Origin: Geotalea daltonii FRC-32
GTDB taxonomy: Bacteria > Desulfobacterota > Desulfuromonadia > Geobacterales > Geobacteraceae
Assembly: GCF_000022265.1 (NCBI RefSeq)
Contig: NC_011979.1
Location: 4,080,001-4,112,000, forward strand
DNA: 32,000 nucleotides
Direction: 5' to 3'
Every line of letters begins with the position of its first letter. Positions within the stretch are counted from its first letter, which is position 1. A program made the position numbers and the translations under genes. Below are positions 844 to 14,107 of this stretch, piece by piece. Below the pieces are notes generated by a model. The model was not told the origin of the DNA and made no database searches. It was given only the letters and a program-made list of their open reading frames with translations.

Positions 844-1028
844 CGGGTGATGCGCTTCTTTTTGATGAAGAAGAGCGAAAGCCGCCGGTTGATTTCCTTT
901 TGCAGTTTGACGCGCTGTTGGAGTTAAACGAGGAAGAGAAAAAAGTGGTGAGGGCGGTGCTTGACGGCCTGGTTCTGCGGCATCAGGCTAAAAAGTTCAT
1001 GGACAGGCAACATGCAGAAACGCCGTGA
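822..1028 (+). pseudogene. 3' remnant of a small XRE-type HTH regulator gene (no start codon, HTH part missing)
   Basis: The frame is open from the TAG at 819-821 to the TGA at 1026-1028 with no usable start codon. It reads ...LLFDEEERKPPVDFLLQFDALLELNEEEKKVVRAVLDGLVLRHQAKKFMDRQHAETP*. This resembles the C-terminal tail of ~110-aa XRE-family regulators, and it is followed by its own terminator. Confidence 0.5.
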
Positions 1029-1064
1029 AACCCTGTAGTCTAAGGCTTCACGGCGTTTTGTTTG
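1018..1064 (+). terminator. Rho-independent terminator
   Basis: A 12-bp perfect stem, AAACGCCGTGAA (1018-1029) pairing with TTCACGGCGTTT (1047-1058), followed by TTTTGTTT. Confidence 0.7.
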
Positions 1065-1097
1065 GTCAGGTTGTCTCATGTCTGGGGCTGACCCTGC

Positions 1098-1436
1098 CTA
1101 TTTACCCCTAAATTCCAACACAACAGAATCGTTACTGGAATTTTTCAAGCGAATTCCTCTGTTATTTGCGACAGCTAGCCAGAATATAGCCATGAATGAT
1201 GAGAGAGGCATTAAGACGGCAAACCGGGACAACGTATAAAATGTACCCAACTTGTTACCTTGCTTTTTCCTTTCGCCTTCTTGCATGTGCATTAACAATT
1301 GCAATGATGAAAGGATGACCCTAGCTCGCCAACCGCATATTGAGACGTCAAAGTCCTTGTTTTCATTCAACAACCTTTTTGCCTTCGCACCAAAGCCACG
1401 TTCACTATACTCTAGCACTTCCGCCTGATTTCCCAT
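1098..1436 (-). CDS. Small membrane protein, candidate cognate immunity protein of the upstream Rhs
   Basis: A 112-aa ORF whose ATG (1434-1436) lies 1 nt after the Rhs stop codon (1438-1440). It has one clear hydrophobic helix, FAVLMPLSSFMAIFWLAVA. Its position matches the usual rhs-rhsI arrangement. I recognise no family. Confidence 0.5.
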   Translation of the reverse strand: MGNQAEVLEYSERGFGAKAKRLLNENKDFDVSICGWRARVILSSLQLLMHMQEGERKKQGNKLGTFYTLSRFAVLMPLSSFMAIFWLAVANNRGIRLKNSSNDSVVLEFRGK

Positions 1437-1437
1437 T

Positions 1438-4400
1438 TTAATTCCCCATCGTTACACAGCTAATCCATGCTGCCGTACACGCAGCAAGACAGACTCCCTT
1501 ACCCACAACACCTCCCGGACAGCGGGTGGTGCAAAAAGCCGTACACACTCTGAACATTGCACTACATCCGGTTCCAGGTGGCTTCGGTGGCTTTATCGGT
1601 GGTCTTGGCGGTGGTGGTATTGTTGGAATTGTGGGTGGTGGTTTTGGCAGTGGTCCTACAGCAGCTTCTCCAGTGGGATCGGTCCAATTCACAGGGTTGT
1701 TGTCGACGTAAGCATAGAGATTTATCCCCCCAGCGAACCCTATCGGATCTTTTTGAATATACCGCCCGATTGCCGGATTATAATCCCTAAAATAATTGTA
1801 GTTGTTCCCCGTCTCGCCGTCTGCATACTGGCCCGGAAATCTGAAATTGAGACTGGCCAAGCCAGTGATAGTTGCATTATCCCCAAATGGCCTTGCCTCT
1901 ACCTCCCACGCTTTAGCCCCGGTTCCGTCAGTCATGAAGGTAGGAGTGCCTAAATGATCGGTATGGATGTAGCTTATGCCGGTTGCGTCGATCTTGGCCA
2001 GCGGCTGGTTGCTCAGGTAGATGTAGTCAGCTTGGGTGCCGTCTGTAGCTGATTCAGCTATGAGTTGTCCTTGCTGATCAAAGATGAAGTAGGTTGTAAT
2101 GCCGTTGACTACCTTCTTGGCGCGTTGCCCATTGGCGTTGTAACTGTAGCTGCCTGTTTGCTCTGCAGTTGCCTGGATCAACCGCTGATTCTGGCTATAG
2201 GTGTATGTCTTGCTGTTTTCGTTCGTTGTGTTGCCGTTGGCGTCATAGCTGAAACTGGCGGGACTCGGGCCGGAAACGCTGGTCAGCTTGTTTGTACCCG
2301 GCTGATAACTATAACTGCTGGTACCGCTGCTGTCGGTCTGAGAGGTTCTGTTGCCAACCCCGTCATAGAGCCAACTTATCGTTCCCCATGGCCCGCTGCC
2401 GCTACCCAGCCGGTCGAGATTGTCGTAAGTGTAGGTCTTGTTCTTGGTATTGTCGAGATTATTGGTGATGGCGGTGATATTGCCATTAGCATCATAGCCG
2501 TAAGTGAGGTTTTGGACAGTTCCGGTAACGATGCTCGCTGGCCGATATTGGTTGTCGTAGGCTATGGTTCTTGCTAAACCGTTGCCGTAGGTGAGTGTTG
2601 TCAGGCCGCCGAAGGGTTTGTAAGTGATACTGCCGGCAAGGGTCGTGGTTATCCCGCCTAGTGTGCCGGTTACGCTGGTTACCCGGTCATTGGTGTAGTT
2701 GTAGGTTATAACCCTGCTGCTTGGATAGGTGATGGTTTTGGTATTGCCGTTCATGTCGTAGGTGTACTGGGTTGTGTAGGCAATACTATCAATTGTTCTT
2801 GTTTCCTTGGCTACCTGTCCTTTCTTCGTGTACTCATAGCTGGTTGTGCCGCTCTGGTCAGTGACAGCGCAGAGCCACCCCTTGCCGTTTGGACAGGTAT
2901 CGTAATTGTAAATGTTTGCCGAGTCTGTGGGAAAGGTTGTCGTGATGAGGCGGTTGGCGGCATCGTAGGTATAGGTTATGGTAATGCCTTTTGCGTCGGT
3001 CTTTGTCTTTAAATTGCCAGCAGGGTCATAGGTGTACGTGGTAGTGCCGGTATCGGGTGAGATGGCTTGATAGACCCTGCCCTTGTCGTCGTACTTGTAG
3101 ACAGTGCTATTGTTATTGCCGTCAGTGACGGTGGCCAGATTGTTGTTTGTGTTGTAGCTGAAGCCTGTGGTGATAGTACCAGGTTGGATCGTAGCGGTAA
3201 CCCGCCTCAAGGCGTCGTACTGGCTGGTGATGGTACTGCCTTTCGGGTCCTTGCTGCTGGTCACATTGCCGAGGCTGTCGTACCCGTACTCTGTGTAGGT
3301 TGCGTCAGGATTTTTGACCTGCTTGAGCCTGTTGAGGGCATCGTACTGGTAGCTGAGGGTCTTTTGCAAAACGCCTGTTGGGTCTTTGATCTCTTCTTTA
3401 AGCTTGTTCCCTTCACTGTCGTAGCTGTAGTTGAGGCTATTCCCAAGTCCGTCGCTAATTTTGCTGAGTTTGCCATTGGTGTCATAGAGGAAATCTAATC
3501 TATTCCCTTCCGGGAAAATCATGTGATCGATACGGTTTGCTACTCCACCGCATGAGCTGCAGCTGCCGGTGGTATAGCCGATCTGAGTAGCGGCGGTGTC
3601 TCCGGGTGCTTTGACGGTGAGTACGCGACCGACGGCATCATAGGTATAAAGGGTAGCATTGCCGTTGGAATCGGTGATAGTTCCTGGGTTGCCAAGGCCA
3701 TCATAGTTGTCATAGGTGGTGCCGACAACGGGCTCGGTTTTGGTAAGCATATTGCCGCTGGCATCGTAGGTGAAGGTGGTCACATCCTGAACATCTGTGC
3801 GAGGGCCGTCTATTTTTTTCAGCCGACTTTGGCTGTCATATTCGTAACTGGTGATGTAGCTGTACGGTGTACCATCGCCTAAAAGGCCTGTTTCGGTGGT
3901 ACTAAGGAGATTGCCTTTGGTGTCATAGTCGTTTGTGGTTACTCGATCCTGTGCAGGATTTACCACGCTTTTTACTTTTTCTGTCAGGACGTTACCGAAT
4001 ATTGGATGGTAGGTGTAGGTGGTGGTTTTTTCTATGGCGGTCCCTTGGGCATCGGTACGGGTAAGCAGGTTGCCAACTGCATCGTAGGTGTAATCAGCGG
4101 CGTATTTGAGCACAAGGTTAGGACTTGCCACCGTACCGGTGTTTTCCCACTTTTCTTCACGGGTGACCCACGTCTGACTGTTTCTGGTGTATCTCGTTTC
4201 ATTGCCGAAAGTATCGGTTACCTTGGCCACCTGCCCGCTCTGGTCAAAGGTGACAACGCGGTTCTGGGTGTTGAGAAGGGTCCCTGTCCCGTCTTTGATT
4301 GTAGTAGTAACTGTCGTTTTTTGCCGCGGAATTATGTAGCTGATGTCGATTGTGCCGGTACCGTGGGTTTGTTTGATAACCTTCCCCTGGGAATCATAGC

Positions 4401-5304
4401 TATTGACGTACATCCCTTCACCTTCGTCAATTGTGGTGAGAAGGTGCTTGTCGTTGGTATCGGTATAGCCATAGAGAGAATTAAACTGCGGAGATGATAC
4501 GGACTTCAAATTGCCGATACTGTCATGGTCGTAGGTGATAGTTCTCGAAAGGCTGTCGGTTATCTGGGTCAGCCGGCCTGTTTGTGCATCATAGGAAAAA
4601 TGAACCCACCTGCCGGTGGGCGTGCCGGTGGTGTCATGTTCTTCAACAGTACTTAACCTATAGTCGTACGCCACAACAAGCGGGTCCGTCTGTAGAACAT
4701 TCCAGGGTAACAGCCCCCAGAGTGGGGCTTTTGTGGCTGCTTCATAACTGAGAACAAGGGAGTTGCCTTTGATGTCTGTCATCGTGGTCAGACGACCATT
4801 AATATCGTATGTTTCCGCTGAGCCGTCTTTCTCAGTATAGGTATGGGTACCGTCGGGATTGGTGGTGAGGATTCCCGTTTCACCTACTGGCGTAGTAAAA
4901 CCTGTACCAGAAGGCATGAAATGTCTTTTCCAACCGGTTTCCTTCCGGATTATGACTGAGCCGTCGGCATAGGTATAAAGTCTCTTGTCGTAGTTATGCG
5001 CCCAACCATAACCCAAGGGGCTGTCATAGCCGGATACACTGGTGTATCGTCTTTTTATGTAGATGGGGAAGTTACCAAGAGTGAGATCGACCCTGCTTAA
5101 CGACTCCGTCCCTGAAACAAGGCTGATGGGTTTGCCAACATAGCCGGGATTCCCTTTTTCTATAATGGTTGCATCGGTCGCCTCGACCTTGTAATCCACA
5201 GCTGCACGAGAAACGCTTGGTAAAAAGCCCCCCCCTACACAGACTACGAGCAGCAGTCTCACCATGCCTATAAACCTTTTATTTTTAGCTACTCCACCCA
5301 GCAT
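1438..5304 (-). CDS. Rhs/YD-repeat protein with a Sec-type signal peptide and a short Pro-rich/Cys-rich C-terminal tip
   Basis: 1288 aa with a strong RBS (GAGGAGGGA) before the ATG at 5304. The N-terminus is MLGGVAKNKRFIGMVRLLLVVCVGGGFLPSVSRA/AV. A DUF6531-like entry segment follows (LVSGTESLSRVDLTLG...IKRRYTS...LGYGWAHNYD). Dozens of YD repeats follow (YTYDAVGN, YEYDSQSRL, YQYDALNRL and others). The Rhs core end reads YIHTDHLGTP...FPGQYADGETGNNYNYFRDYNPAIGRYIQKDPIGFAGGINLYAYVDNNPVNWTDPTGE and is followed by only 75 residues. Confidence 0.95.
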   Translation of the reverse strand: MLGGVAKNKRFIGMVRLLLVVCVGGGFLPSVSRAAVDYKVEATDATIIEKGNPGYVGKPISLVSGTESLSRVDLTLGNFPIYIKRRYTSVSGYDSPLGYGWAHNYDKRLYTYADGSVIIRKETGWKRHFMPSGTGFTTPVGETGILTTNPDGTHTYTEKDGSAETYDINGRLTTMTDIKGNSLVLSYEAATKAPLWGLLPWNVLQTDPLVVAYDYRLSTVEEHDTTGTPTGRWVHFSYDAQTGRLTQITDSLSRTITYDHDSIGNLKSVSSPQFNSLYGYTDTNDKHLLTTIDEGEGMYVNSYDSQGKVIKQTHGTGTIDISYIIPRQKTTVTTTIKDGTGTLLNTQNRVVTFDQSGQVAKVTDTFGNETRYTRNSQTWVTREEKWENTGTVASPNLVLKYAADYTYDAVGNLLTRTDAQGTAIEKTTTYTYHPIFGNVLTEKVKSVVNPAQDRVTTNDYDTKGNLLSTTETGLLGDGTPYSYITSYEYDSQSRLKKIDGPRTDVQDVTTFTYDASGNMLTKTEPVVGTTYDNYDGLGNPGTITDSNGNATLYTYDAVGRVLTVKAPGDTAATQIGYTTGSCSSCGGVANRIDHMIFPEGNRLDFLYDTNGKLSKISDGLGNSLNYSYDSEGNKLKEEIKDPTGVLQKTLSYQYDALNRLKQVKNPDATYTEYGYDSLGNVTSSKDPKGSTITSQYDALRRVTATIQPGTITTGFSYNTNNNLATVTDGNNNSTVYKYDDKGRVYQAISPDTGTTTYTYDPAGNLKTKTDAKGITITYTYDAANRLITTTFPTDSANIYNYDTCPNGKGWLCAVTDQSGTTSYEYTKKGQVAKETRTIDSIAYTTQYTYDMNGNTKTITYPSSRVITYNYTNDRVTSVTGTLGGITTTLAGSITYKPFGGLTTLTYGNGLARTIAYDNQYRPASIVTGTVQNLTYGYDANGNITAITNNLDNTKNKTYTYDNLDRLGSGSGPWGTISWLYDGVGNRTSQTDSSGTSSYSYQPGTNKLTSVSGPSPASFSYDANGNTTNENSKTYTYSQNQRLIQATAEQTGSYSYNANGQRAKKVVNGITTYFIFDQQGQLIAESATDGTQADYIYLSNQPLAKIDATGISYIHTDHLGTPTFMTDGTGAKAWEVEARPFGDNATITGLASLNFRFPGQYADGETGNNYNYFRDYNPAIGRYIQKDPIGFAGGINLYAYVDNNPVNWTDPTGEAAVGPLPKPPPTIPTIPPPPRPPIKPPKPPGTGCSAMFRVCTAFCTTRCPGGVVGKGVCLAACTAAWISCVTMGN

Positions 5305-5348: not shown

Positions 5349-5855
5349 TTAGTGGCCTGCAAAACCTGCTGACCGATCATCTGGTCCTGGTCCTGGTCCT
5401 GGTCCTGGTCCTGGTCCTGGCCCTGGCCCTGGTCCTGGCCCTGGCGGCGGTGGCGGCGGTGGTGGCCCACAAAGAGAGCAGGAATCTCCGTTGTTGCAAC
5501 AAGCATTGCCGCAACAGGGATCATTACTGCCACAGCAAGGGTCAGTACTGTTACAGCATTTGTCGGTCGGATCGGAACATAACCCTGTGTAAAGGATGCC
5601 ACAGAAGTCATTTCCGCCTTCAATCACAACCTGACCACAAGTCGTACATACTTCAGGGGGATAATAAAGCATCTCAAATCGCGTACAACCACCAGCTTTA
5701 TCGCAGAATGCCTCGGCAACAGAGATGGCTTCAGCTTTCGTATCACATTTTGATGGTCCACACAAACTGACATCCCAACATTGCGCGAAAGATAAATCAG
5801 GCACTAAGACCATGATCATGATTAAGTAACTGACTGTATGAATAAGAACTTTCAC
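5349..5855 (-). CDS. Secreted Cys-rich protein, paralog 1 (DPCCG-repeat module + poly-Pro + (GP)n linker + GFAGH tail)
   Basis: 168 aa with a GTG start at 5853-5855 and AAGGAT 9 nt upstream. The signal peptide is MKVLIHTVSYLIMIMVLVPDLSFA/QC. The mature part has 19 Cys and ends CSDPTDKCCNSTDPCCGSNDPCCGNACCNNGDSCSLCG-P8-(GP)n-DDRSAGFAGH. A paralog lies at 6383-6934. Confidence 0.8.
   Translation of the reverse strand: MKVLIHTVSYLIMIMVLVPDLSFAQCWDVSLCGPSKCDTKAEAISVAEAFCDKAGGCTRFEMLYYPPEVCTTCGQVVIEGGNDFCGILYTGLCSDPTDKCCNSTDPCCGSNDPCCGNACCNNGDSCSLCGPPPPPPPPGPGPGPGPGPGPGPGPGPGPDDRSAGFAGH
5381..5466. repeat. Coding microsatellite: ~10.5 copies of CTGGTC/CTGGCC (Gly-Pro codons on the minus strand) followed by a GGC/GGT run (poly-Pro)
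   Basis: Read directly from the sequence. Hexamers run 5381-5444 and the poly-Pro codon run is 5445-5466. The repeat also generates the artefactual low-complexity shadow ORFs at 5264-5770 and 5318-5623. Confidence 0.95.
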
Positions 5856-6104: not shown

Positions 6105-6262
6105 TTAACGGCCTGCAAAATCAGGTAGATCTGATGGTGGCGTCGGTCCAGGTCCTGTTGATCCCGGTCCGGTCGGCCCAGGTCCTGTCGGTGGTGAAGG
6201 TGGCGGTGGCGGGCCACAAGAGAGCAGGAATCTCCATTGTTACAACAAGCATTGCCACAGGG
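6105..6262 (-). pseudogene. Frameshifted, 5'-truncated remnant of a third Cys-rich paralog
   Basis: The reverse strand reads ..RPCGNACCNNGDSCSL, then lacks one T relative to paralog 1 (ctctcttgtggcc versus ctctctttgtgggcc). With the frame restored it continues CGPPPPPSPPTGPGPTGPGSTGPGPTPPSDLPDFAGR* with the stop at 6105-6107. Similarity to paralog 1 stops abruptly upstream, at an in-frame TAA. Confidence 0.6.
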
Positions 6263-6382
6263 TCTTTATGTCTTCGGAATGGCATTAAATCTCCCTCGAC
6301 AGATCGTGCTTCACGCTGCATCCTGTCAAAAAGTGAGTTAGGCGTAATACGAAAGGAGGCAAAAGAACAGCTGTACTCCCTT

Positions 6383-6934
6383 TTATTTGCCAGTAAACCC
6401 CGAAAGATCTGAATCTGGTGCTCGATTTTGTCCGTTTGAGCCGTTTGAACCATTTGAGCCATTTGAGCCCGGTGGTGGCGGGCCACAAGTCACGCAGGAA
6501 TCATTATTGTTGCAACAATCATTGCCGCAACAGGGATCTTTACTGCCACAGCATTTGTCGTAAGGATTTGTGCAGCAAGGATTGGTTGGATCAGAGCAGT
6601 TATTGCAGTAAATCGCTATATTAACTTCAGCCTCTGGATAACATGTACATATAGTTTTTGCACCATCCCAACAAAATCTTTGGCTATATTTAACAACAAG
6701 AGTACGTCTTGAACCGTGGTAAATTTGATCATTATATGGAGCATCACCTATTATTGAACAGCTACAGAACGCATTACCACTGCTCCCGCAAAAGACAGTA
6801 TTAACATGATCAACAGCTTGATCACGAGTCCAACAATCATCAGCAACAGACAAGTTTTCAAAACATAGAACTAGAAGCAAGGTAAAAACAATGTAATATA
6901 TTTTATAAAGAAACCTGCTGATATAGCTCATCAA
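6383..6934 (-). CDS. Secreted Cys-rich protein, paralog 2 (DPCCG-repeat module + poly-Pro + (GSN)4 linker + GFTGK tail)
   Basis: 183 aa with TTG at 6934 or ATG at 6931 as start, and GGAGG at 6944-6948 (reverse strand). The signal peptide is ...FTLLLVLCFENLSVA/DDC. The mature part has 19 Cys and ends CSDPTNPCCTNPYDKCCGSKDPCCGNDCCNNNDSCVTCGPPPP(GSN)4GQNRAPDSDLSGFTGK. Confidence 0.8.
   Translation of the reverse strand: MMSYISRFLYKIYYIVFTLLLVLCFENLSVADDCWTRDQAVDHVNTVFCGSSGNAFCSCSIIGDAPYNDQIYHGSRRTLVVKYSQRFCWDGAKTICTCYPEAEVNIAIYCNNCSDPTNPCCTNPYDKCCGSKDPCCGNDCCNNNDSCVTCGPPPPGSNGSNGSNGSNGQNRAPDSDLSGFTGK
6432..6467. repeat. Coding 9-nt tandem repeat, four copies (CCGTTTGAG / CCGTTTGAA / CCATTTGAG / CCATTTGAG), encoding (GSN)4
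   Basis: Read directly from the sequence. Confidence 0.95.
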
Positions 6935-7012: not shown

Positions 7013-10000
7013 TTAATCGCCTACACCCAAATTTCCCCTAGTGACAGACGAAGCACCAGTAACTGGATCGGTCGCCTGGATCCAAACTGTATAGTCTCCT
7101 TCCTCGCTCACAGCAAATCCATTGCCGGTTGCATCGGTGGCTTTCCATTCAATCTCATACTCTCCTGCCGGCTGGAGGACATGATCGACTAGAGTTATTC
7201 CTAATGCCGTTGGTGGCAGCATCTTTACCGTAATATATGCCTGCTTGGACACGGCATATTTCAATCTGGTGAACTGTCCATATGAGAAGTGCAGTTGATA
7301 AGGGTCAGTGCTGACATAGGTGATCTTTGGGGTGTTGCCGGTTGCAATGATGAAGTTCTCGGCAAGTAGGGAAGAAACCGAGCAAGACGCTGTGCCCCCG
7401 CCATTCAGCATGACGTTTAAGGGATTCCTCCCATCCCAATTGGTGGTATAGGTACCCGGAGTGTAGGGTATTGCATCGACTATCTTGAAGTTTTGGCTAC
7501 CCCATAGGATATTGATCGTGACGCGTTCTGGTTGAGTAACGGAGTAGGTAATTGGAAGAGGGACGTTCCTGCGTGGATAGTAATCCCCCTGGCTGCATGT
7601 GATGCTCCCCTGACCACTCGGCGGTAGCGGAGAGTAGCCGTCGGTTCTTGTCCCATCAGAGGCATTCAGTATATACAGATACGCCTCATCCAAAACGGTT
7701 TTGCCGGTCGAATCGGCACCATTCCAGGTATATGAATAACTGCCAGCGGTCAGACAGCTTATTGAAGCTTGGTACACCGGAGTACCATTGGTACCGAGCT
7801 TTTCCGGTATGACACTCAAAGTCACTGTTGCCGGGCTGTTGATGGTGAATGCTATGGTCGTAGATTCCCCTAAGGCTGTGTTTAACGTGTTCTGGCTGGC
7901 TGATATCGAGGAGAGGATCAGGTTATTCACGGTCACGGGTATAGCTGTTACTGCTCTGTTGCCGGCCTTATCTGTGGCAGTTATCTTCATCTGATACTCG
8001 CCATTCTCTAACCTGATCTCGTTTTTCAAATCATTGGTGATCCACACTGCCAGCGTACCTGAGGTGACTGGCATACTTGACGACGCGAAAAGAGTCCATT
8101 GCCCCGTGCCGGATGCTGCCCCATATTCCACTGTGTAAGTATCGAAATTGGTATCCGCAGCAGTTCCGGTAATGGTCGCCGTGTTCTGCAATACCCCGCC
8201 TGAAACAGGCGCTGTAATGGAAACAGTCGGCAGCGTGGTATCAACTTTTATGGTGCCTGTTTTAGGTGAAGCTCCCAGAGACGACACTGGATCAAGAGCA
8301 TTGAATGCATAGGTATATGTGTCGTTAGGCACAACCACACCTGCAGAATTACGGCCGTCCCAGGCCTGGCTGAACGCAGAGCTACCTTGAGTTGTAAGGG
8401 TCCTGACAACAGTACCGGTTGAGTTGCTTAACGTTACGGACCAATTGACCGGGTAGCTGGCCGTCGCGCTAAGTAGCGACGAATCCTTGGTACCATCGCC
8501 GTTCGGTGAAAGGTAAGTCTCCGACGAATTTGCATTCTGAATCCAGAGGAGCCTGATGCGTGCCGCTTTTACTGTTGCATTCCCGGCATTATCGGTGACG
8601 GTGAGGCGCAGGGTGTATACGCCTCCAGTGGCATTGGTGAGGTCCCAGGCATACAAAAGGTTACCTTGCACTGGAACTGTTGCGCTCCTAAGGGCACTCC
8701 AGGAAATCGGGTTGTCTCCTGCCCCATACTCAAGGGTGTAGTTCTTGAAATCGGTAGGATCGGAGGCGGTGCCGGTAACATTGACGATGGTCCCGCCGGA
8801 AAAGATCTGATCATCAGTCGGCACATCGAGAATGGCCACAGGAAGTTGGCGGAATACCTTTACGGTTCCTTGTAAGGGAGAGGCCGCTTCCAAAGTCGCA
8901 GGATTTACCGCTTCTATCTTGTAGGTATAATTTCCATCCGCTACTTTCACAGACTGGCTGTCTTCGCCAAACCATCTCTGACTGATGGAAGTGCCGGAGC
9001 CGGTGAAAATTCTGACGACGTTATTTCCGCTGTCGGTGATAGTGATGGTCCAGTTGGCATTGGCGGAGATGAATGCCCCGAAGGTGAGATAATCCCCATC
9101 AGGATTGAACGCTGCTGGCGAAACCTTGACATTGCTGAAAGTCACTCCAGTCCCTGGAGTCTGGCCAATCCAAGGATTGTAGAGTACCTTGTCGCTGACG
9201 CTGTTGCCGGTGCCGGAAGGGTTGCTTGCATGGGTTGGTCCGGAGTCTGCCCCCCACCAATTATTTCTTGCGTCAACATCTACAGTCGTGGAACTGTTCC
9301 ATACACCTGCGGTGGAATTGCCGTAGATTCGTGAATTGACGATGTAAGGGTTTGAAGAAGTGGCATAAACACCCCACTTGTTGGCTGTAACCGTGCAACC
9401 AACCACCTGAGGGATGTTTTGTGCACCATATACATAGATGCCGCTTCCGGCACTGTTTCTGATTGTGGAATTACGGATCACTGGCGAAGAAGAATTAAAG
9501 ACAACGTTTGCGTTATTGTAGTACCCTCCTGAGCCTCCGTATTCGACGACAATGTTATTCAATATACTGCCGCTGGCAGAGTCACCGGAGAAGGTTATAC
9601 CCGACCAGCTTCCGGCAGTAGGCGTACCCTGACTGGAAGTAAAGGTGATCGCTGCCGTCCCTCCATCGGCAATGATGGACCCCCTGGAAGATCCCGAACC
9701 AATCTGCAGCGAGGTGTTTGTGTTAAATTTCACCACGACTCCCGGATCGATGGTCAGGGTAGCGGTGGTGACGGTGTCCTTAAAAACATAGACATTGCCG
9801 AGAACAATATATGGTGCTACCCACTTCTTCCAAAGAGTGTTTTGCGTCAGATACTCCCCGACAACCTCGATTTTGCCGGTTGCGGTAAGTCCGCTGAAGG
9901 TGTTTTCAGACAAAATCCGGTTTATCAAGGCAGCCCCTGCATGGGGTGGCGAATTATCCCCATTGCTGAAGGTATTGCCGGTGATGGTAGGGGTGATGCC

Positions 10001-13000
10001 GGTGGATGCGAGGTAGATGCCATTGGCAATGGTTGAATTCGTGACTGACAACATTGAAGTGGAACTGTTCAGGTAAAGGCCGTACTTGCCAGTGCTATTG
10101 ACGATGGAGACGCTGTAATTGGAAACTGTTGGAGAGCCGCTTCCGTAAATGCCATGACCGGTGGTGTTGGTATTGGTTAAGCTGCCACCGGTAATGATGG
10201 GCGATGAGGCAGAAAGATTGATACCGTAGCTGCCGTTGTTGGTAAGAGTGACATTCTCCAGCACCGGGTTACTATTAGAAAAGCTAGCATAGCCCGTCAT
10301 GTCTGTTATGGTGCAGTTTCTAAAAACAGGTGAAGCGGAGTTGATACTAAAGCCGGTGGTATATTGAATGTCGGCAATTTCGATTACTGATGTTGCATCC
10401 ACAGTGCCGTCATAATAGGTAAGGCCTGCCCATGTACCGCTGATGCCGCTTCGGGTGAAGGTGATACGATTTGATGGTGTTCCCTGGGCTATCAATGCCC
10501 CCTGGTTCGTGCCACTGCCGATCTGAAGTCCGGTGCTGGTCGCAAACTTGATGACGGTTCCCGGTGCAATGGTCAAGGTCGAGGCGGTTGTCGTGGTGTT
10601 GTAGACGGAAACAGTGCCGGAGACCACGTGATACGGAGCTGCCAGTGGGCTCCAGGTTACATTACGGTTCACCTGTTCGCCCACGATCTCGATTCTGCCG
10701 CCTGAAGTAAGGCCAGTTAGGGCGTTGTTGGCTATAAGCTGCCCGACTATGTTCGCCCCTACATGGATCGGAGAGCTATCCAGATTAGTGAAGGTATTGC
10801 CGGTAACGGTCGGGGTAATGCCGGTGGATGCGAGGTAGATGCCATTGGCAATGGTTGAGTTCGTGACTGACAACATTGAAGTGGAACTGTTCAGGTAAAG
10901 GCCGTACTTGCCAGTGCTATTGACCATAGAGACATTGTAATTCGTAATGACCGGTGCCCCGTTGCCATAAATACCATGGCCGGTGGTGTTGGTGTTGGTG
11001 TTGGTTAGGCTGCCACCGGTAATGATGGGCGATGAGGCAGAAAGATTGATACCGTAGCTGCCGTTGTTGGTAAGAGTGACATTCTCCAGCACCGGGTTAC
11101 TATTAGAAAAGCTAGCATAGCCCGTCATGTCTGTTATGGTGCAGTTTCTAAAAACAGGTGAAGCGGAGTTGATACTAAAGCCGGTGGTATATTGGATGTC
11201 GGCATTCTCGATTACTGATGTTGCATCCACAGCCCCGTCATAATAGGTAAGGCCTGCCCATGTACCGCTAGTGCCGCTCCGGGTAAATGTAATCCTTTCC
11301 GTCGTCGTCCCTTTTGCGATTAGTGCCCCTTGATTGGCACCACTTCCTATGTATAGCCCGCTACCGCCTGCAAATAATTTAATTGTTGTTCCTGGCTCGA
11401 TAGTCAGAGTAGCAGGCGAAATGGTATCTTTGTATACGTAAATGGCTCCTGAAATCACATAAGGCGCAATCTGTTTCCGCCACAGTGTGTCCCTGTTTAT
11501 CTGCTCGCCTACCACCTCGATCTTGCCGGCAAAGGTCTGGCCGGTCAGGGTGTTGTTGGCGATGATCTGGGCAATGATATTGGCTCCCGCATGAAGGGGG
11601 GAGTTATCTAAATTAGTGAAGGTGTTGCCGGTGATAGTCGGAGTAATGCCGGTGGAGCCAAAGTATATGCCATTGGCGATGATAGAGTTGGTAACACTGA
11701 GGGCTGAGGTCGTACTGCCGAGGTAAAGACCATACTTGCCGGCACTGTTGACGATGGAGACGCTGTAATTGGAAATTGTTGGGGAGCCGCTGCCATAAAT
11801 GCCATGGCCGGTGGTGCTGGTGTTGGTTAAGCTGCCGCCGGTAATGATGGGCGAGGAATTCGAAAGGTAGAGGCCATAGCTGCCATTGTTGGTGATGGCA
11901 ACATTCTCCATGATCGGATTGGCGGAAGAAAGATTAATCCCATATCCCGTTACGTCTGTTATGGTGGAGGTTTTGATTGTAGGAGAAGCAGATGTGATAC
12001 TCAACCCGCTATTGTACTGGACATCGGCGTTTTCGATGACGGTTATGGCATCAACAGTGCCGTCTTGGAAGGCGATGGTTCCCCAAGTCCCGGTTGTGCT
12101 GCTTCGGGTGAAGGTAATTCTCTCTGTCGTCGTCCCTCTGGCGATGAGTGCTCCCTGGCTTGTACCGTTGCCAATCTGGAGCCCGGTATTCGGGGCAAAT
12201 TTGATCATGGTGCCTGGTGCAATGGTTAAGGTAGAGGGGATGGCCGTCGTATTGTAAACCGAGACCGTGCCGGAGACTACCCAGTAAGGAGCAACCAACT
12301 TGTTCCACGTTGTGTCCTGGGAAACCTGCTCGCCCATGACCTCGACCCTGCCCGTGGAAGCAAGGCCGGTCAGGGTGTTGTTGGCGATGATCTGGGCAAT
12401 GATATTGGCTCCCGCATGCAGGGGCGAATTATCCAGATTGGTGAAGGTATTGCCGGTAACGGTCGGGGTAATGCCGGTGGATGCGAGGTAGATGCCATTG
12501 GCAATGGTTGAGTTCGTGACTGACAACATTGAAGTGGAACTGTTCAGGTAAAGGCCGTACTTGCCAGTGCTATTGACCATAGAGACATTGTAATTCGTAA
12601 TGACCGGTGCCCCGTTGCCATAAATACCCTGACCGGTGGTGTTGGTATTGGTTAAGCTGCCACCGGTAATGATGGGCGATGAGGAGTTCAGGTAGATGCC
12701 GTAGCTGCCGTTGTTGGTAAGAGTGACATTCTCCAGCACCGGGTTACTATTAGAAAAGCTAGCATAGCCCGTCATGTCTGTTATGGTGCAGTTTCTAAAA
12801 ACAGGTGAAGCGGAGTTGATACTAAAGCCGGTGGTATATTGGATGTCGGCATTTTCGATTACTGATGTTGCATCCACAGTGCCGTCATAATAGGTAAGGC
12901 CTGCCCATGTACCGGTTGTGCCGCTTCGGGTGAAGATAATTCTCTCTGTCGTCGTCCCTCTGGCGATGAGTGCTCCCTGACTGGCACCACTTCCTATGTA

Positions 13001-14107
13001 TAGCCCGCTGCCGCCTGCAAATTTAATAGCCGTACCAGGCTCGATGGTCAGGGTAGCAGGGGAAATGGTATCTTTGTATACGTAAATGGCTCCTGAAATC
13101 ACATAAGGGGCAATCTGTTTCCACCACAGTGTGTCCCTGTTTATCTGCTCGCCTACCACCTCGATCTTGCCGGCAAAGGTCTGGCCGGTCAGGGTGTTGT
13201 TGGCGATGATCTGGGCAATGATGTTGGCTCCCGCATGAAGGGGGGAGTTATCTAAATTAGTGAAGGTGTTGCCGGTGATAGTCGGAGTAATGCCGGTGGA
13301 GCCAAAGTATATGCCATTGGCGATGATAGAGTTGGTAACACTGAGGGCTGAGGTCGTACTGCCGAGGTAAAGACCATACTTGCCGGCACTGTTGACGATG
13401 GAGACGCTGTAATTGGAAATTGTTGGAGAGCCGCTGCCATAAATGCCATGGCCGGTGGTGCTGGTGTTGGTTAAGCTGCCGCCGGTAATGATGGGCGAGG
13501 AATTCGAAAGGTAGAGGCCATAGCTGCCATTGTTGGTGATGGCAACATTCTCCATGATCGGATTGGCGGAAGAAAGATTAATCCCATATCCCGTTACGTC
13601 TGTTATGGTGGAGGTTTTGATTGTGGGAGAAGCAGATGTGATACTCAACCCGCTATTGTACTGGACATCGGCGTTTTCGATGACGGTTATGGCATCGACA
13701 GTGCCGTCTTGGAAGGCGATGGTTCCCCACGTCCCGGTTGTGCCGCTTCGGGTGAAGGTAATTCTCTCTGTCGTCGTCCCTCTGGCGATGAGTGCTCCCT
13801 GACTGGCACCACTTCCTATCTGCAATACGGTATTGGAAGCAAATTTAACCACAACGCCAGGTTCTATGGTGAGGGTAGCTGCTGTGGTACTGGTCCCATA
13901 CACCTGAACAGTTGAAGTGACATTATAAGGGCTACCGGCCAGAGTCCAGGTTGTATCCGTGGAAATGACACCTCCCACCGTAGTATCTGCAAAAGACGGC
14001 AGAGCATGACTTATCAGAATGAACAAAAAGAAAAGGAGTGTTTTGAGTCCCTTCACCACACCCTCCTGTAAGGTTATTTGATTTAGAACTATTTTGACGG
14101 CATACAC
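7013..14107 (-). CDS. Giant secreted/surface protein: about six tandem parallel-beta-helix modules followed by FlgD-Ig-like and other Ig-like domains
   Basis: 2364-aa ORF. The likely true start is the GTG at 14054-14056, which lies 5 nt after AGGAGG (14062-14067, reverse strand). That start gives the signal peptide M-KGLKTLLFFLFILISHALPSFA/DTT. The modules begin with W..APY...G.V.V......LTIEPG..IKFA....L.IGSG.SQGALIA.GTT.ERI.FT. They continue with short N/S/T/G-rich beta-helix rungs (NNGSYGLYL, SPIITGG). The C-terminal third (about 7013-9165) has repeated FlgD-Ig-type signatures such as SPAAFNPDGDYLTF...WTITITDSGNNVVRIF...WFGEDSQSVKVADGNYTYKIEA and LSPNGDGTKDSS...WDGRNSAGVVVPNDTYTY. Confidence 0.95.
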   Translation of the reverse strand: MYAVKIVLNQITLQEGVVKGLKTLLFFLFILISHALPSFADTTVGGVISTDTTWTLAGSPYNVTSTVQVYGTSTTAATLTIEPGVVVKFASNTVLQIGSGASQGALIARGTTTERITFTRSGTTGTWGTIAFQDGTVDAITVIENADVQYNSGLSITSASPTIKTSTITDVTGYGINLSSANPIMENVAITNNGSYGLYLSNSSPIITGGSLTNTSTTGHGIYGSGSPTISNYSVSIVNSAGKYGLYLGSTTSALSVTNSIIANGIYFGSTGITPTITGNTFTNLDNSPLHAGANIIAQIIANNTLTGQTFAGKIEVVGEQINRDTLWWKQIAPYVISGAIYVYKDTISPATLTIEPGTAIKFAGGSGLYIGSGASQGALIARGTTTERIIFTRSGTTGTWAGLTYYDGTVDATSVIENADIQYTTGFSINSASPVFRNCTITDMTGYASFSNSNPVLENVTLTNNGSYGIYLNSSSPIITGGSLTNTNTTGQGIYGNGAPVITNYNVSMVNSTGKYGLYLNSSTSMLSVTNSTIANGIYLASTGITPTVTGNTFTNLDNSPLHAGANIIAQIIANNTLTGLASTGRVEVMGEQVSQDTTWNKLVAPYWVVSGTVSVYNTTAIPSTLTIAPGTMIKFAPNTGLQIGNGTSQGALIARGTTTERITFTRSSTTGTWGTIAFQDGTVDAITVIENADVQYNSGLSITSASPTIKTSTITDVTGYGINLSSANPIMENVAITNNGSYGLYLSNSSPIITGGSLTNTSTTGHGIYGSGSPTISNYSVSIVNSAGKYGLYLGSTTSALSVTNSIIANGIYFGSTGITPTITGNTFTNLDNSPLHAGANIIAQIIANNTLTGQTFAGKIEVVGEQINRDTLWRKQIAPYVISGAIYVYKDTISPATLTIEPGTTIKLFAGGSGLYIGSGANQGALIAKGTTTERITFTRSGTSGTWAGLTYYDGAVDATSVIENADIQYTTGFSINSASPVFRNCTITDMTGYASFSNSNPVLENVTLTNNGSYGINLSASSPIITGGSLTNTNTNTTGHGIYGNGAPVITNYNVSMVNSTGKYGLYLNSSTSMLSVTNSTIANGIYLASTGITPTVTGNTFTNLDSSPIHVGANIVGQLIANNALTGLTSGGRIEIVGEQVNRNVTWSPLAAPYHVVSGTVSVYNTTTTASTLTIAPGTVIKFATSTGLQIGSGTNQGALIAQGTPSNRITFTRSGISGTWAGLTYYDGTVDATSVIEIADIQYTTGFSINSASPVFRNCTITDMTGYASFSNSNPVLENVTLTNNGSYGINLSASSPIITGGSLTNTNTTGHGIYGSGSPTVSNYSVSIVNSTGKYGLYLNSSTSMLSVTNSTIANGIYLASTGITPTITGNTFSNGDNSPPHAGAALINRILSENTFSGLTATGKIEVVGEYLTQNTLWKKWVAPYIVLGNVYVFKDTVTTATLTIDPGVVVKFNTNTSLQIGSGSSRGSIIADGGTAAITFTSSQGTPTAGSWSGITFSGDSASGSILNNIVVEYGGSGGYYNNANVVFNSSSPVIRNSTIRNSAGSGIYVYGAQNIPQVVGCTVTANKWGVYATSSNPYIVNSRIYGNSTAGVWNSSTTVDVDARNNWWGADSGPTHASNPSGTGNSVSDKVLYNPWIGQTPGTGVTFSNVKVSPAAFNPDGDYLTFGAFISANANWTITITDSGNNVVRIFTGSGTSISQRWFGEDSQSVKVADGNYTYKIEAVNPATLEAASPLQGTVKVFRQLPVAILDVPTDDQIFSGGTIVNVTGTASDPTDFKNYTLEYGAGDNPISWSALRSATVPVQGNLLYAWDLTNATGGVYTLRLTVTDNAGNATVKAARIRLLWIQNANSSETYLSPNGDGTKDSSLLSATASYPVNWSVTLSNSTGTVVRTLTTQGSSAFSQAWDGRNSAGVVVPNDTYTYAFNALDPVSSLGASPKTGTIKVDTTLPTVSITAPVSGGVLQNTATITGTAADTNFDTYTVEYGAASGTGQWTLFASSSMPVTSGTLAVWITNDLKNEIRLENGEYQMKITATDKAGNRAVTAIPVTVNNLILSSISASQNTLNTALGESTTIAFTINSPATVTLSVIPEKLGTNGTPVYQASISCLTAGSYSYTWNGADSTGKTVLDEAYLYILNASDGTRTDGYSPLPPSGQGSITCSQGDYYPRRNVPLPITYSVTQPERVTINILWGSQNFKIVDAIPYTPGTYTTNWDGRNPLNVMLNGGGTASCSVSSLLAENFIIATGNTPKITYVSTDPYQLHFSYGQFTRLKYAVSKQAYITVKMLPPTALGITLVDHVLQPAGEYEIEWKATDATGNGFAVSEEGDYTVWIQATDPVTGASSVTRGNLGVGD
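9830..13950 (-). repeat. Intragenic tandem array of ~822-nt (~274-aa) beta-helix modules, with a ~1644/1653-nt super-period at near identity
   Basis: The module-initial Trp codons fall at about 13948, 13126, 12304, 11482, 10651 and 9832. Shadow ORFs 13252-13449 and 11608-11805 differ by one residue. Shadow ORFs 13530-13802 and 11886-12257 are also nearly identical. A third B-type copy lies one module (822 nt) below the second (10001 versus 10823). Confidence 0.9.

Follow-up and report, generated by a model that had tools for sequence, protein, structure and literature searches.

We examined a stretch of 32,000 nucleotides from the chromosome of Geotalea daltonii FRC-32 (contig NC_011979.1, positions 4,080,001 to 4,112,000 of the forward strand; hereafter the window, whose own coordinates are used below), and in particular the short C-terminal tip of a Rhs/YD-repeat protein together with the small gene that follows it. 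The window has the content of a Geobacter-like chromosome, including glmS, glmU, a multihaem cytochrome, modABC-type genes and a PAS histidine kinase. The Rhs gene lies at 1438..5304 on the minus strand and encodes 1288 amino acids plus a stop codon, as defined from the list of open reading frames (ORFs) and from Pfam and NCBIfam scans. Pfam placed DUF6531 at residues 57–127, RHS_repeat over 11 stretches (5.7e-75) and RHS at residues 1110–1142, and NCBIfam recognised Rhs_assc_core (TIGR03696, residues 1139–1212, 1.8e-24) and YD_repeat_2x (7.6e-44). The protein therefore has the RHS/YD repeats that form the shell of a polymorphic toxin. It also has the two catalytic aspartates of a Rhs-associated core, in the arrangement DPxGL ... 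PxxxxDPxG (D1186 and D1209), and a variable C-terminal domain that is swapped as a cassette with a downstream candidate immunity gene.

The first 34 residues (5203..5304, minus strand) form a predicted Sec-type signal peptide, consisting of KNKR, LLLVVCVGGGFL and an SRA/AV junction, which was identified by reading the sequence and its hydropathy profile. The Pfam scan detected no PAAR or VgrG domain in the protein, and there are no type VI secretion system (T6SS) genes in the window. The original prediction, made from the sequence of the window, had proposed a Sec-exported Rhs protein, and these observations agree with it. An exact-sequence look-up of the protein returned no matching record. 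Its nearest core relative is in L001, a Geobacteraceae metagenome-assembled genome (MAG; DATDNF010000012), with 67% identity and an unrelated tip. The L001 contig carries three Rhs C-terminal cassettes with tips of 84, 87 and 113 amino acids, and after one of these comes a 76-amino acid ORF that has a hydrophobic segment as well as two CxxC pairs; short tips seem to be common in this lineage.

The tip of the window's protein comprises 75 residues, encoded by exactly positions 1441–1665, and divides into a linker of 33 residues and a tail of 42. The linker (residues 1214–1246; 1567..1665, minus strand) is supported by alignment A3, composition and the ratio of non-synonymous to synonymous substitution rates (dN/dS). 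It is basic and Pro-rich, with 16 prolines and a net charge of +4, and carries a conserved (I/V)PTIPPP motif in alignment A3. The tail (residues 1247–1288; 1441..1566, minus strand) is a hydrophobic domain, predicted to be helix-turn-helix and supported by exhaustive phmmer searching, alignments A1 and A3, AlphaFold and dN/dS. It contains seven of the 12 cysteines of the whole protein, at positions 1247, 1254, 1258, 1262, 1272, 1276 and 1283. The architecture of a Pro-rich linker and a 42-residue, seven-Cys hydrophobic tail is as originally predicted and is confirmed by the ORF translation. The Cys pattern is C-x6-C-x3-C-x3-C-x9-C-x3-C-x6-C, so that the earlier spacing was correct for the last five gaps (x3-x3-x9-x3-x6) but not for the first, which is x6 and not x7.

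When the tip, the linker and the downstream ORF were scanned against Pfam and NCBIfam at E<=10, all matches were at noise level (Sublancin, 1.3; BimA, 5.7; DUF7535, 0.02), and no NCBIfam model of a C-terminal sorting signal (PEP-CTERM, GlyGly-CTERM and similar) matched the tip at that threshold. The tip thus matches no Pfam or NCBIfam family, and the earlier proposal that it is too small for an enzyme is supported. No orphan copies of the tip, the downstream ORF or the core end were found elsewhere in the window.

Relatives of the tip were sought in proteins and in metagenomic DNA. When 1.84 billion representative proteins were searched exhaustively with phmmer, seven relatives were found (E 4e-8 to 6e-4), all of them matching at the extreme C-terminus of fragments ending in a Rhs core motif. 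A degenerate pattern for the seven cysteines plus CPGG, applied to metagenome DNA, gave five true loci and four false ones (L022, L023, L025 and L028, which are Cys-rich and of low complexity); the same pattern had no match in viral contigs. A protein search indexed by 5-mer words missed all of the relatives, with either the 45-residue tip or an alignment of eight tip sequences as the query: short Cys-rich domains fall below the sensitivity of a word index. Judged by these sequence searches, the tip family is new and very rare, with 7 clusters among the 1.84 billion representatives.

In total there are 12 distinct tips including that of the window, with no insertion or deletion between the first and last cysteines. 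The recurrence of an indel-free Cys pattern at 11 other Rhs C-termini places the tip beyond chance. All 12 share the seven cysteines, the PGG that follows the fourth of these (the CPGG turn) and one lysine (Lys1269), and Phe1251 is nearly invariant. The linkers vary from 23 to 44 residues and are rich in Pro and Lys/Arg, with (I/V)PTIPPP recurring. The tips form two clades, A and B, the latter being marked by CE.GC and by Tyr, in most cases, in place of Trp. Full-length carriers with Sec-type leaders are the window's protein and that of L026, in which the signal peptide is followed by CBM96 and immunoglobulin (Ig)-like domains ahead of the Rhs core; the module is thus carried by Rhs proteins exported through Sec. 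The L026 linker also holds a run of 15 glycines. At L008 (ERZ27300165 k141_895662, 1–210), the tip, which lies upstream of the partner homologue P0002 described below, is frameshifted between FRV and AFC, which is either an assembly error or the sign of a decaying copy.

At 75 residues the tip is shorter than the toxins of characterised Rhs proteins, such as those of RhsA (∼15 kDa; PMC8765631) and Tse5 (Tse5-CT, 149 amino acids; PMC9637101), and it could be imagined as the degraded stump of a longer enzymatic domain. We regard this explanation as effectively refuted, because the family is free of indels, its members end uniformly, the tip is under purifying selection and the Rhs frame is closed beyond the stop codon. 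All 12 members end 2–8 residues past the last cysteine and none is longer. Compared with the related cassette of L020, where synonymous sites are well diverged, dN/dS was 0.15 for the tip, 0.13 for the linker and 0.22 for the downstream gene. Past the Rhs stop codon the frame is full of further stops, and the next ORF lies behind a stop in its own frame, which is closed five codons upstream of its ATG; a frameshift or read-through is rejected on the same grounds. The original prediction had named an intact longer domain in close relatives as the observation that would reveal a remnant; no such longer version is present in any of the relatives found. The sequences therefore argue that the tip is a rare, conserved module under purifying selection and not a remnant.

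Immediately downstream of the Rhs gene is an ORF of 112 amino acids (1098..1436, minus strand), which is a candidate immunity gene on the basis of the ORF list, its homologues and an AlphaFold model. Its ATG begins 1 nucleotide after the Rhs stop codon, and a Shine-Dalgarno-like GGGGA is found inside the end of the Rhs ORF. Two close homologues, P0002 (76% identical) and P0003 (59% identical), directly follow tips of the same family, and L013, L018, L019 and L024 have more distant ones after their tips, which are 23–43% identical to the window's ORF and have in common a helix of the form FMxxFW(L/M)AxA. Homologues of this partner, which we call family A (∼110 amino acids), adjoin tips in L008, L009–L012/L020, L013, L018, L019 and L024, and the family follows clade-A tips in seven loci. 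Clade-B tips are followed by a different protein of ∼150 amino acids that passes the Pfam thresholds for TPR (L021, L026 and L027); on the clade-B contig of P0007 the TPR match is faint, and the contig of L014 contains the start of the same ORF. The TPR partner has no hydrophobic segment and no signal peptide, as judged by hydropathy. There is no relationship between this family and family A (probability 0.25% in hhalign).

The AlphaFold model of the family A partner has the order beta-alpha-beta-alpha-(hydrophobic alpha)-beta-beta, with a pLDDT (predicted local distance difference test) of 72.7 and a pTM (predicted template modelling score) of 0.64. A Foldseek search of this model against the PDB gave nothing significant, the best match (E 0.026; query TM-score, TMq, ∼0.4) being IF3-C/SpoVS/Alba-like. 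Because AlphaFold sets the hydrophobic helix inside a small alpha/beta domain, it is more likely to be buried, or to serve in binding, than to anchor the protein in a membrane. The partner had been taken for a membrane protein in the original prediction, a view that is not supported by the placement of its one hydrophobic helix in the model or by the soluble TPR character of the partner in the sister clade.

The tip and its partner gene move together. A blastn comparison of the window with L020 gave 73% nucleotide identity from window position 1767 to 901, and the Rhs cores of the two loci are only 33% identical at the protein level. The shared segment (901..1767, minus strand) has the form of a mobile cassette containing the last ∼34 codons of the core, the linker, the tip, the partner gene and ∼200 nucleotides of 3′ flank. 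By these alignments, the tip moves between Rhs genes as a unit with the core end, the linker and the partner ORF, which is how polymorphic toxin-immunity cassettes normally behave (PMC3482391). Orphan Rhs C-terminal fragments were found after the partner gene in L018 and L026. In these regions (L026 6400–6700, together with its linker, and further downstream; L018 929–3768) the fragments are accompanied by other tips and small ORFs, forming spare-cassette arrays.

Several repeats and a transposase gene are found close to the cassette. A 15-nucleotide inverted repeat downstream of the partner gene (1018..1058, no strand assigned) is conserved in L020 and was not called by a simple terminator scan. 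A tandem 17-mer, GGGCGGCTAGGGGGACG, is present in two copies at ∼812–845, upstream of a RAYT gene; it and the inverted repeat could be repetitive extragenic palindromic (REP)-like elements or mark the transcript end. The RAYT gene, for an IS200-like REP-associated tyrosine transposase (MPRQPRLDIPDVLHHVIVRG...), occupies positions 1–757 on the minus strand, just downstream of the cassette, and continues beyond the edge of the window. A related RAYT gene is immediately upstream of the L020 Rhs gene that carries the same cassette (reoriented L020, 5975–6988), and RAYT may be linked to cassette mobility or to the truncation of the L020 N-terminus.

The tip is swapped between different cores and is accompanied by partner genes that match its clade; the two are therefore a probable toxin and immunity protein. 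We consider it likely, with good confidence, that the module represents true toxin-like cargo and has a cognate partner, and this conclusion is much more secure than any assignment of the tip to a membrane target.

Release of such a cargo would depend on the autoprotease at the end of the core. The first aspartate of its dyad, D1186, is within DPIGF (residues 1186–1190; 1735..1749, minus strand), which aligns with the DPIGL of Pseudomonas protegens RhsA (7q97) and with other solved Rhs proteins. The second, D1209, is within the PxxxxDPxG motif (residues 1204–1213; 1666..1695, minus strand), which is evident from the sequence and ends at Glu1213. The RhsA dyad (D1324/D1346) cuts after W1350 within PxxxxDPxG[W/L/F] (PMC8765631), and the chains or density of solved Rhs proteins stop one residue past DPxG. 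In the window the residue before the cut is not Leu, Trp or Phe but Glu (codon GAA). Across the tip family this residue is Leu in nine of the 12 members, His in one, and Glu in the window and L020; although the L020 cassette has diverged from that of the window by 27% in nucleotide sequence, it retains the Glu. Unrelated Rhs proteins from L002, L004 and L006 (three other phyla-level lineages) likewise have Glu here, in a sample biased by the use of NWTDPTGE as the search pattern. The original prediction had noted the DPTGE motif, which is as described, and had treated it as anomalous; given its recurrence in unrelated Rhs proteins and in the closest cassette relative, Glu before the cut is less of an anomaly than was implied and is a recurrent minority variant. 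The tips that follow DPTGE in L002, L004 and L006 (from an Alphaproteobacteria MAG, a Chthoniobacterales MAG and Desulfogranum mediterraneum) are unrelated, measure 115–164 amino acids and have hydrophobic, Gly/Ala-rich starts (e.g. ILPLLAGIGVGMLADWGY and FVPQLAGAAIGVGLEYL). There may be a correlation between Glu at this position and a hydrophobic cargo, although the search pattern biases the sample on which this is based.

The same residue bears on the proposal that the tip is not a toxin at all. On this account it would remain uncleaved and act as a hydrophobic-hairpin anchor on a rigid polyproline stalk, in the manner of the teneurin C-terminal domain, and the downstream gene would encode a chaperone or assembly partner. 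The Glu that replaces Leu, Trp or Phe in the window and L020 would suit such a role, as would the long Pro-rich stalk of all members, and teneurin-type YD shells are not cleaved (PMC8765631). However, all 12 family members retain the two catalytic aspartates in an intact PxxxxDPxG frame, with the canonical Leu in nine, and cassette swapping, orphan fragments and two unrelated clade-specific partner families are hallmarks of a conflict between toxin and immunity and not of a structural component. We therefore consider an uncleaved anchor improbable.

The structure of the tip was predicted from a single 45-residue sequence with AlphaFold2, which gave a helix at positions 2–18, a turn at CPGG and a second helix at 23–43 (mean pLDDT 86.8). 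The Cys spacing is symmetric around the turn (6,3 | 3,6). In a register where i+j=44 (45-mer numbering), C1247 would pair with C1283, C1254 with C1276 and C1258 with C1272, leaving C1262 at the CPGG turn, where it would cap helix 1, and Phe1251 facing position 1279. An alternative register, that of the alpha-hairpinins (C1262–C1272 and C1258–C1276), was ranked below the symmetric one, as it pairs only four cysteines and puts the turn inside the second AlphaFold helix. The model summary and the sequence thus provide a predicted hairpin and a Cys spacing compatible with a helix-loop-helix held by nested disulfides. The domain has a grand average of hydropathy (GRAVY) of +0.7 to +1.2, and the pI of the whole tip is 8.6–9.4 in all members. 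The hairpin is hydrophobic on both its interface and its outer faces, with narrow polar stripes at 9/13/17 and 26/30/34; polar positions are R/K at 9, R/K at 18, the invariant K at 26 and, in clade B, E at 30. The earlier description of a disulfide-rich or membrane-inserting, bacteriocin-like peptide is consistent with a predicted hydrophobic helical hairpin with a ladder of cysteines.

A Foldseek search of the tip against the PDB gave nothing significant (best E 0.94). The top match, itself non-significant, was to a hairpin with two transmembrane (TM) segments, V-ATPase subunit e (TMq 0.86); the few other matches, also non-significant, were to the plant alpha-hairpinins VBP-8 and Luffin P1, to vicilin leaders of the same type, to the Jug r 2 leader and to Tim9/10. 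The TMq was 0.6–0.78 for the vicilin-buried peptides, Luffin P1 and Tim9/10. Alpha-hairpinins, which are defence peptides of plants, and twin-CX3C proteins have CX3C...CX3C motifs on antiparallel helices with C1–C4 and C2–C3 cross-links (PMC7191063), but together with the small Tims they differ from the tip in being eukaryotic, hydrophilic and charged, with four cysteines versus seven, and their Foldseek E values were 3.5–10. Glycocins (sublancin, glycocin F and thermoglycocin) are antibacterial peptides of ∼37–45 amino acids with a helix-loop-helix fold and nested disulfides (PMC12457901) and, like the tip, have an extra cysteine in or near the loop. They differ in being leader-peptide RiPPs (ribosomally synthesised and post-translationally modified peptides) of Firmicutes that are exported by a PCAT (an ATP-binding cassette transporter that contains a peptidase) and S-/O-glycosylated by a dedicated glycosyltransferase, none of which is found here. 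Membership of the glycocins was rejected, as the Sublancin match (E=1.3) scored 9.7 bits versus a cut-off of 26.9 and the neighbouring ORFs contain no glycosyltransferase or PCAT domains. The likeness of the tip to both groups is one of fold only, an analogy between predicted and known structures.

These analogies are the basis of an alternative in which the tip acts outside the cytoplasm. Three nested disulfides would form after Sec export, with C1262 free or modified, and the stapled hairpin would bind a specific envelope receptor or enzyme without forming pores. The seven invariant, symmetrically spaced cysteines and the Sec-type leaders of the two full-length carriers are in keeping with this, as are the alpha-hairpinin and Tim9/10 matches, the Sublancin match, which is the only hint from Pfam, and the nested disulfides known in helix-loop-helix bacteriocins (PMC12457901; PMC7191063). 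Yet the structural and profile matches are all non-significant, and the outer faces of the tip are hydrophobic, unlike those of soluble alpha-hairpinins. In addition, the partners lack a signal peptide, the TPR family being plainly cytoplasmic, and no glycosyltransferase or thiol-disulfide gene was seen adjoining the Rhs gene. We judge a receptor-binding stapled hairpin unlikely.

The nature of the partners suggests a second alternative, in which the tip acts inside the target cell. Once imported, the hairpin, in its reduced form, would employ its Cys ladder in metal binding (Zn, Cu or Fe-S) or would dock onto a cytoplasmic protein that is essential; the basic, Pro-rich segment would be an entry element and the cytoplasmic partner would sequester the tip. 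Neither partner family has a signal peptide, that of clade B being soluble and of the TPR type, which is a peptide-binding fold, and most immunity proteins of polymorphic toxins are cytoplasmic binders (Zhang et al., PMC3482391). The (I/V)PTIPPP motif and the purifying selection on the linker further suggest that this segment is more than a spacer. Nevertheless, the tip has no similarity to metal-binding families in Pfam or NCBIfam, its strongly hydrophobic surface would be odd for a soluble cytoplasmic ligand, and no import pathway can be identified; the proposal comes down to immunity localisation. We regard a cytoplasmic inhibitor as distinctly unlikely.

The reading that we favour, tentatively and with somewhat less than even confidence, is that the cassette encodes a non-enzymatic, membrane-active mini-toxin of an undescribed family with its cognate immunity gene. 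The Rhs protein would be exported by Sec and its YD-repeat shell would fold, after which the aspartyl autoprotease (D1186/D1209) would cut after Glu1213. This would free a 75-residue basic peptide consisting of a polyproline spacer of ∼33 residues and a hydrophobic helix-turn-helix hairpin of 42. The Cys ladder would form the helix-helix interface, with C1247–C1283, C1254–C1276 and C1258–C1272 nested and C1262 at the CPGG turn. Non-enzymatic action is proposed because the tip is too small for an active site: the peptide would partition into the cytoplasmic membrane of the target, oligomerise there and collapse the membrane potential. The 112-residue partner would bind the peptide directly and so neutralise it, probably by way of the hydrophobic FMxxFWLAxA helix that is conserved in this family. 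The basic charge of all tips and their hydrophobicity on every face suit a membrane-active peptide, and the best structural match, although non-significant, is to a hairpin with two transmembrane segments.

Precedents, known or predicted, for non-enzymatic membrane toxins on Rhs proteins are Tox-WTIP (PMC3482391) and Tse5-CT (PMC9637101). Tox-WTIP is a small, highly hydrophobic, non-catalytic domain with two predicted helices at the C-terminus of RHS or PVC toxins, found on RHS proteins of proteobacteria with Sec/type II secretion system (T2SS) leaders and predicted to act on membranes (PMC3482391). The tip resembles it in having two hydrophobic helices (AlphaFold; GRAVY ∼+1) at a Rhs C-terminus. 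In contrast, none of the 12 tips has the defining motifs RxxR (helix 1) and Wx[ST]IP (helix 2); the window's tip has R-x8-R and W-I-S-C (AAWISCV in helix 2), and Tox-WTIP lacks the cysteine ladder, the CPGG turn and the Pro-rich pre-domain. Tox-WTIP is the closest known analogue, but membership was rejected for the missing motifs, and there is no Pfam family match.

Tse5-CT of Pseudomonas aeruginosa is a non-enzymatic Rhs pore former that, once released by a DPxGL aspartyl protease, enters membranes and depolarises cells, and it is countered by the downstream-encoded Tsi5, an integral membrane protein with two TM segments (PMC9637101). The tip is likewise proposed to be a non-enzymatic Rhs cargo with a downstream candidate immunity gene. 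Tse5-CT differs in its length, in its delivery by the T6SS (PAAR-like N-terminus and VgrG4) and in not being Cys-rich, and membership was rejected, as the similarity of the window's protein is confined to the Rhs core. The ionophore toxins of contact-dependent inhibition (CDI; CdiA-CT) are polymorphic and also non-enzymatic, dissipating the membrane potential and being countered by highly specific cognate immunity (PMC11630599). However, they are five-helix bundles with separate entry domains, CdiB/CdiA delivery and membrane immunity proteins. The tip has no sequence relationship to them and its partners are not membrane proteins of the Tsi5/CdiI type; membership was rejected here as well.

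A number of observations weigh against the membrane-active reading. The apolar helix spans are ∼13 and ∼17 residues, which is short for a bilayer, and by a translocon insertion scale the most favourable stretch of 19 residues reaches ∼+3.5 kcal/mol, so that the tip is no classical TM hairpin; nor was any of the Foldseek matches significant. Seven invariant cysteines are superfluous for plain membrane insertion and instead point to redox or metal chemistry. The partner types, a soluble TPR protein without a signal peptide and a predicted compact alpha/beta domain, are unlike the integral membrane proteins (Tsi5 and CdiI) that confer immunity to ionophores. With Glu in place of Leu, Trp or Phe, release of the tip is not assured. 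Finally, domain scans of the neighbouring genes revealed no evident route in the window out of the periplasm of a diderm producer.

A further reading, speculative and one to which we give little credence, would turn the cysteines to account. In place of an enzyme, the Rhs shell would hold a ribosomally made peptide of bacteriocin size. The Cys-ladder hairpin would be redox-switchable, being reduced and unfolded in the shell and locked by three nested disulfides on release, in a form active on membranes or on a receptor. The conserved, basic polyproline segment would be an active delivery element and no passive spacer, for example spanning the periplasm or hijacking a transporter, and resistance would be provided by two unrelated cytoplasmic binders. 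If true, this would define a class of Rhs cargo that is new, along with a new scaffold for antibacterial peptides.

Directly upstream of the Rhs gene is a gene for a protein of 168 amino acids (5349–5855, minus strand) that has a signal peptide and more than 20 cysteines. The cysteines come in repeated DPCCG-like units, followed by P8 and a (GP)11 run (∼5382–5465), so that, like the tip, the protein joins a Cys-rich to a Pro-rich segment. Neither Pfam nor NCBIfam gave a match, and the gene is not conserved beside L020 or L026. Two small ORFs without family matches (6121–6486 and 6383–6934) separate the Rhs region from a gene in the same strand block (7013–14107, minus strand) for a secreted protein of 2364 amino acids with right-handed beta-helix/NosD repeats, PKD/Ig-like domains and C-terminal FlgD_ig and CHU_C-type domains.

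The tip family fits the known logic of Rhs polymorphic toxins, with the unusual traits of minimal size, a Cys ladder, a polyproline pre-domain, two partner families and Glu before the cut. Characterised Rhs cargo consists mostly of enzymatic domains of ∼15 kDa or more. If the membrane-active reading is true, a 7.5-kDa peptide with a functional part of ∼40 residues would be among the smallest Rhs payloads and the first to be built on an invariant cysteine ladder. It would widen the range of what Rhs shells package and offer a compact, easily synthesised antibacterial scaffold. It would also be a natural case of one toxin fold countered by two unrelated immunity folds. The system would further make it possible to examine the tolerance of the Rhs aspartyl autoprotease for Glu before the cut. 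The finding also bears on the Sec-exported Rhs proteins of environmental diderms, such as Geobacter-like bacteria and those sampled in groundwater and sediment metagenomes.

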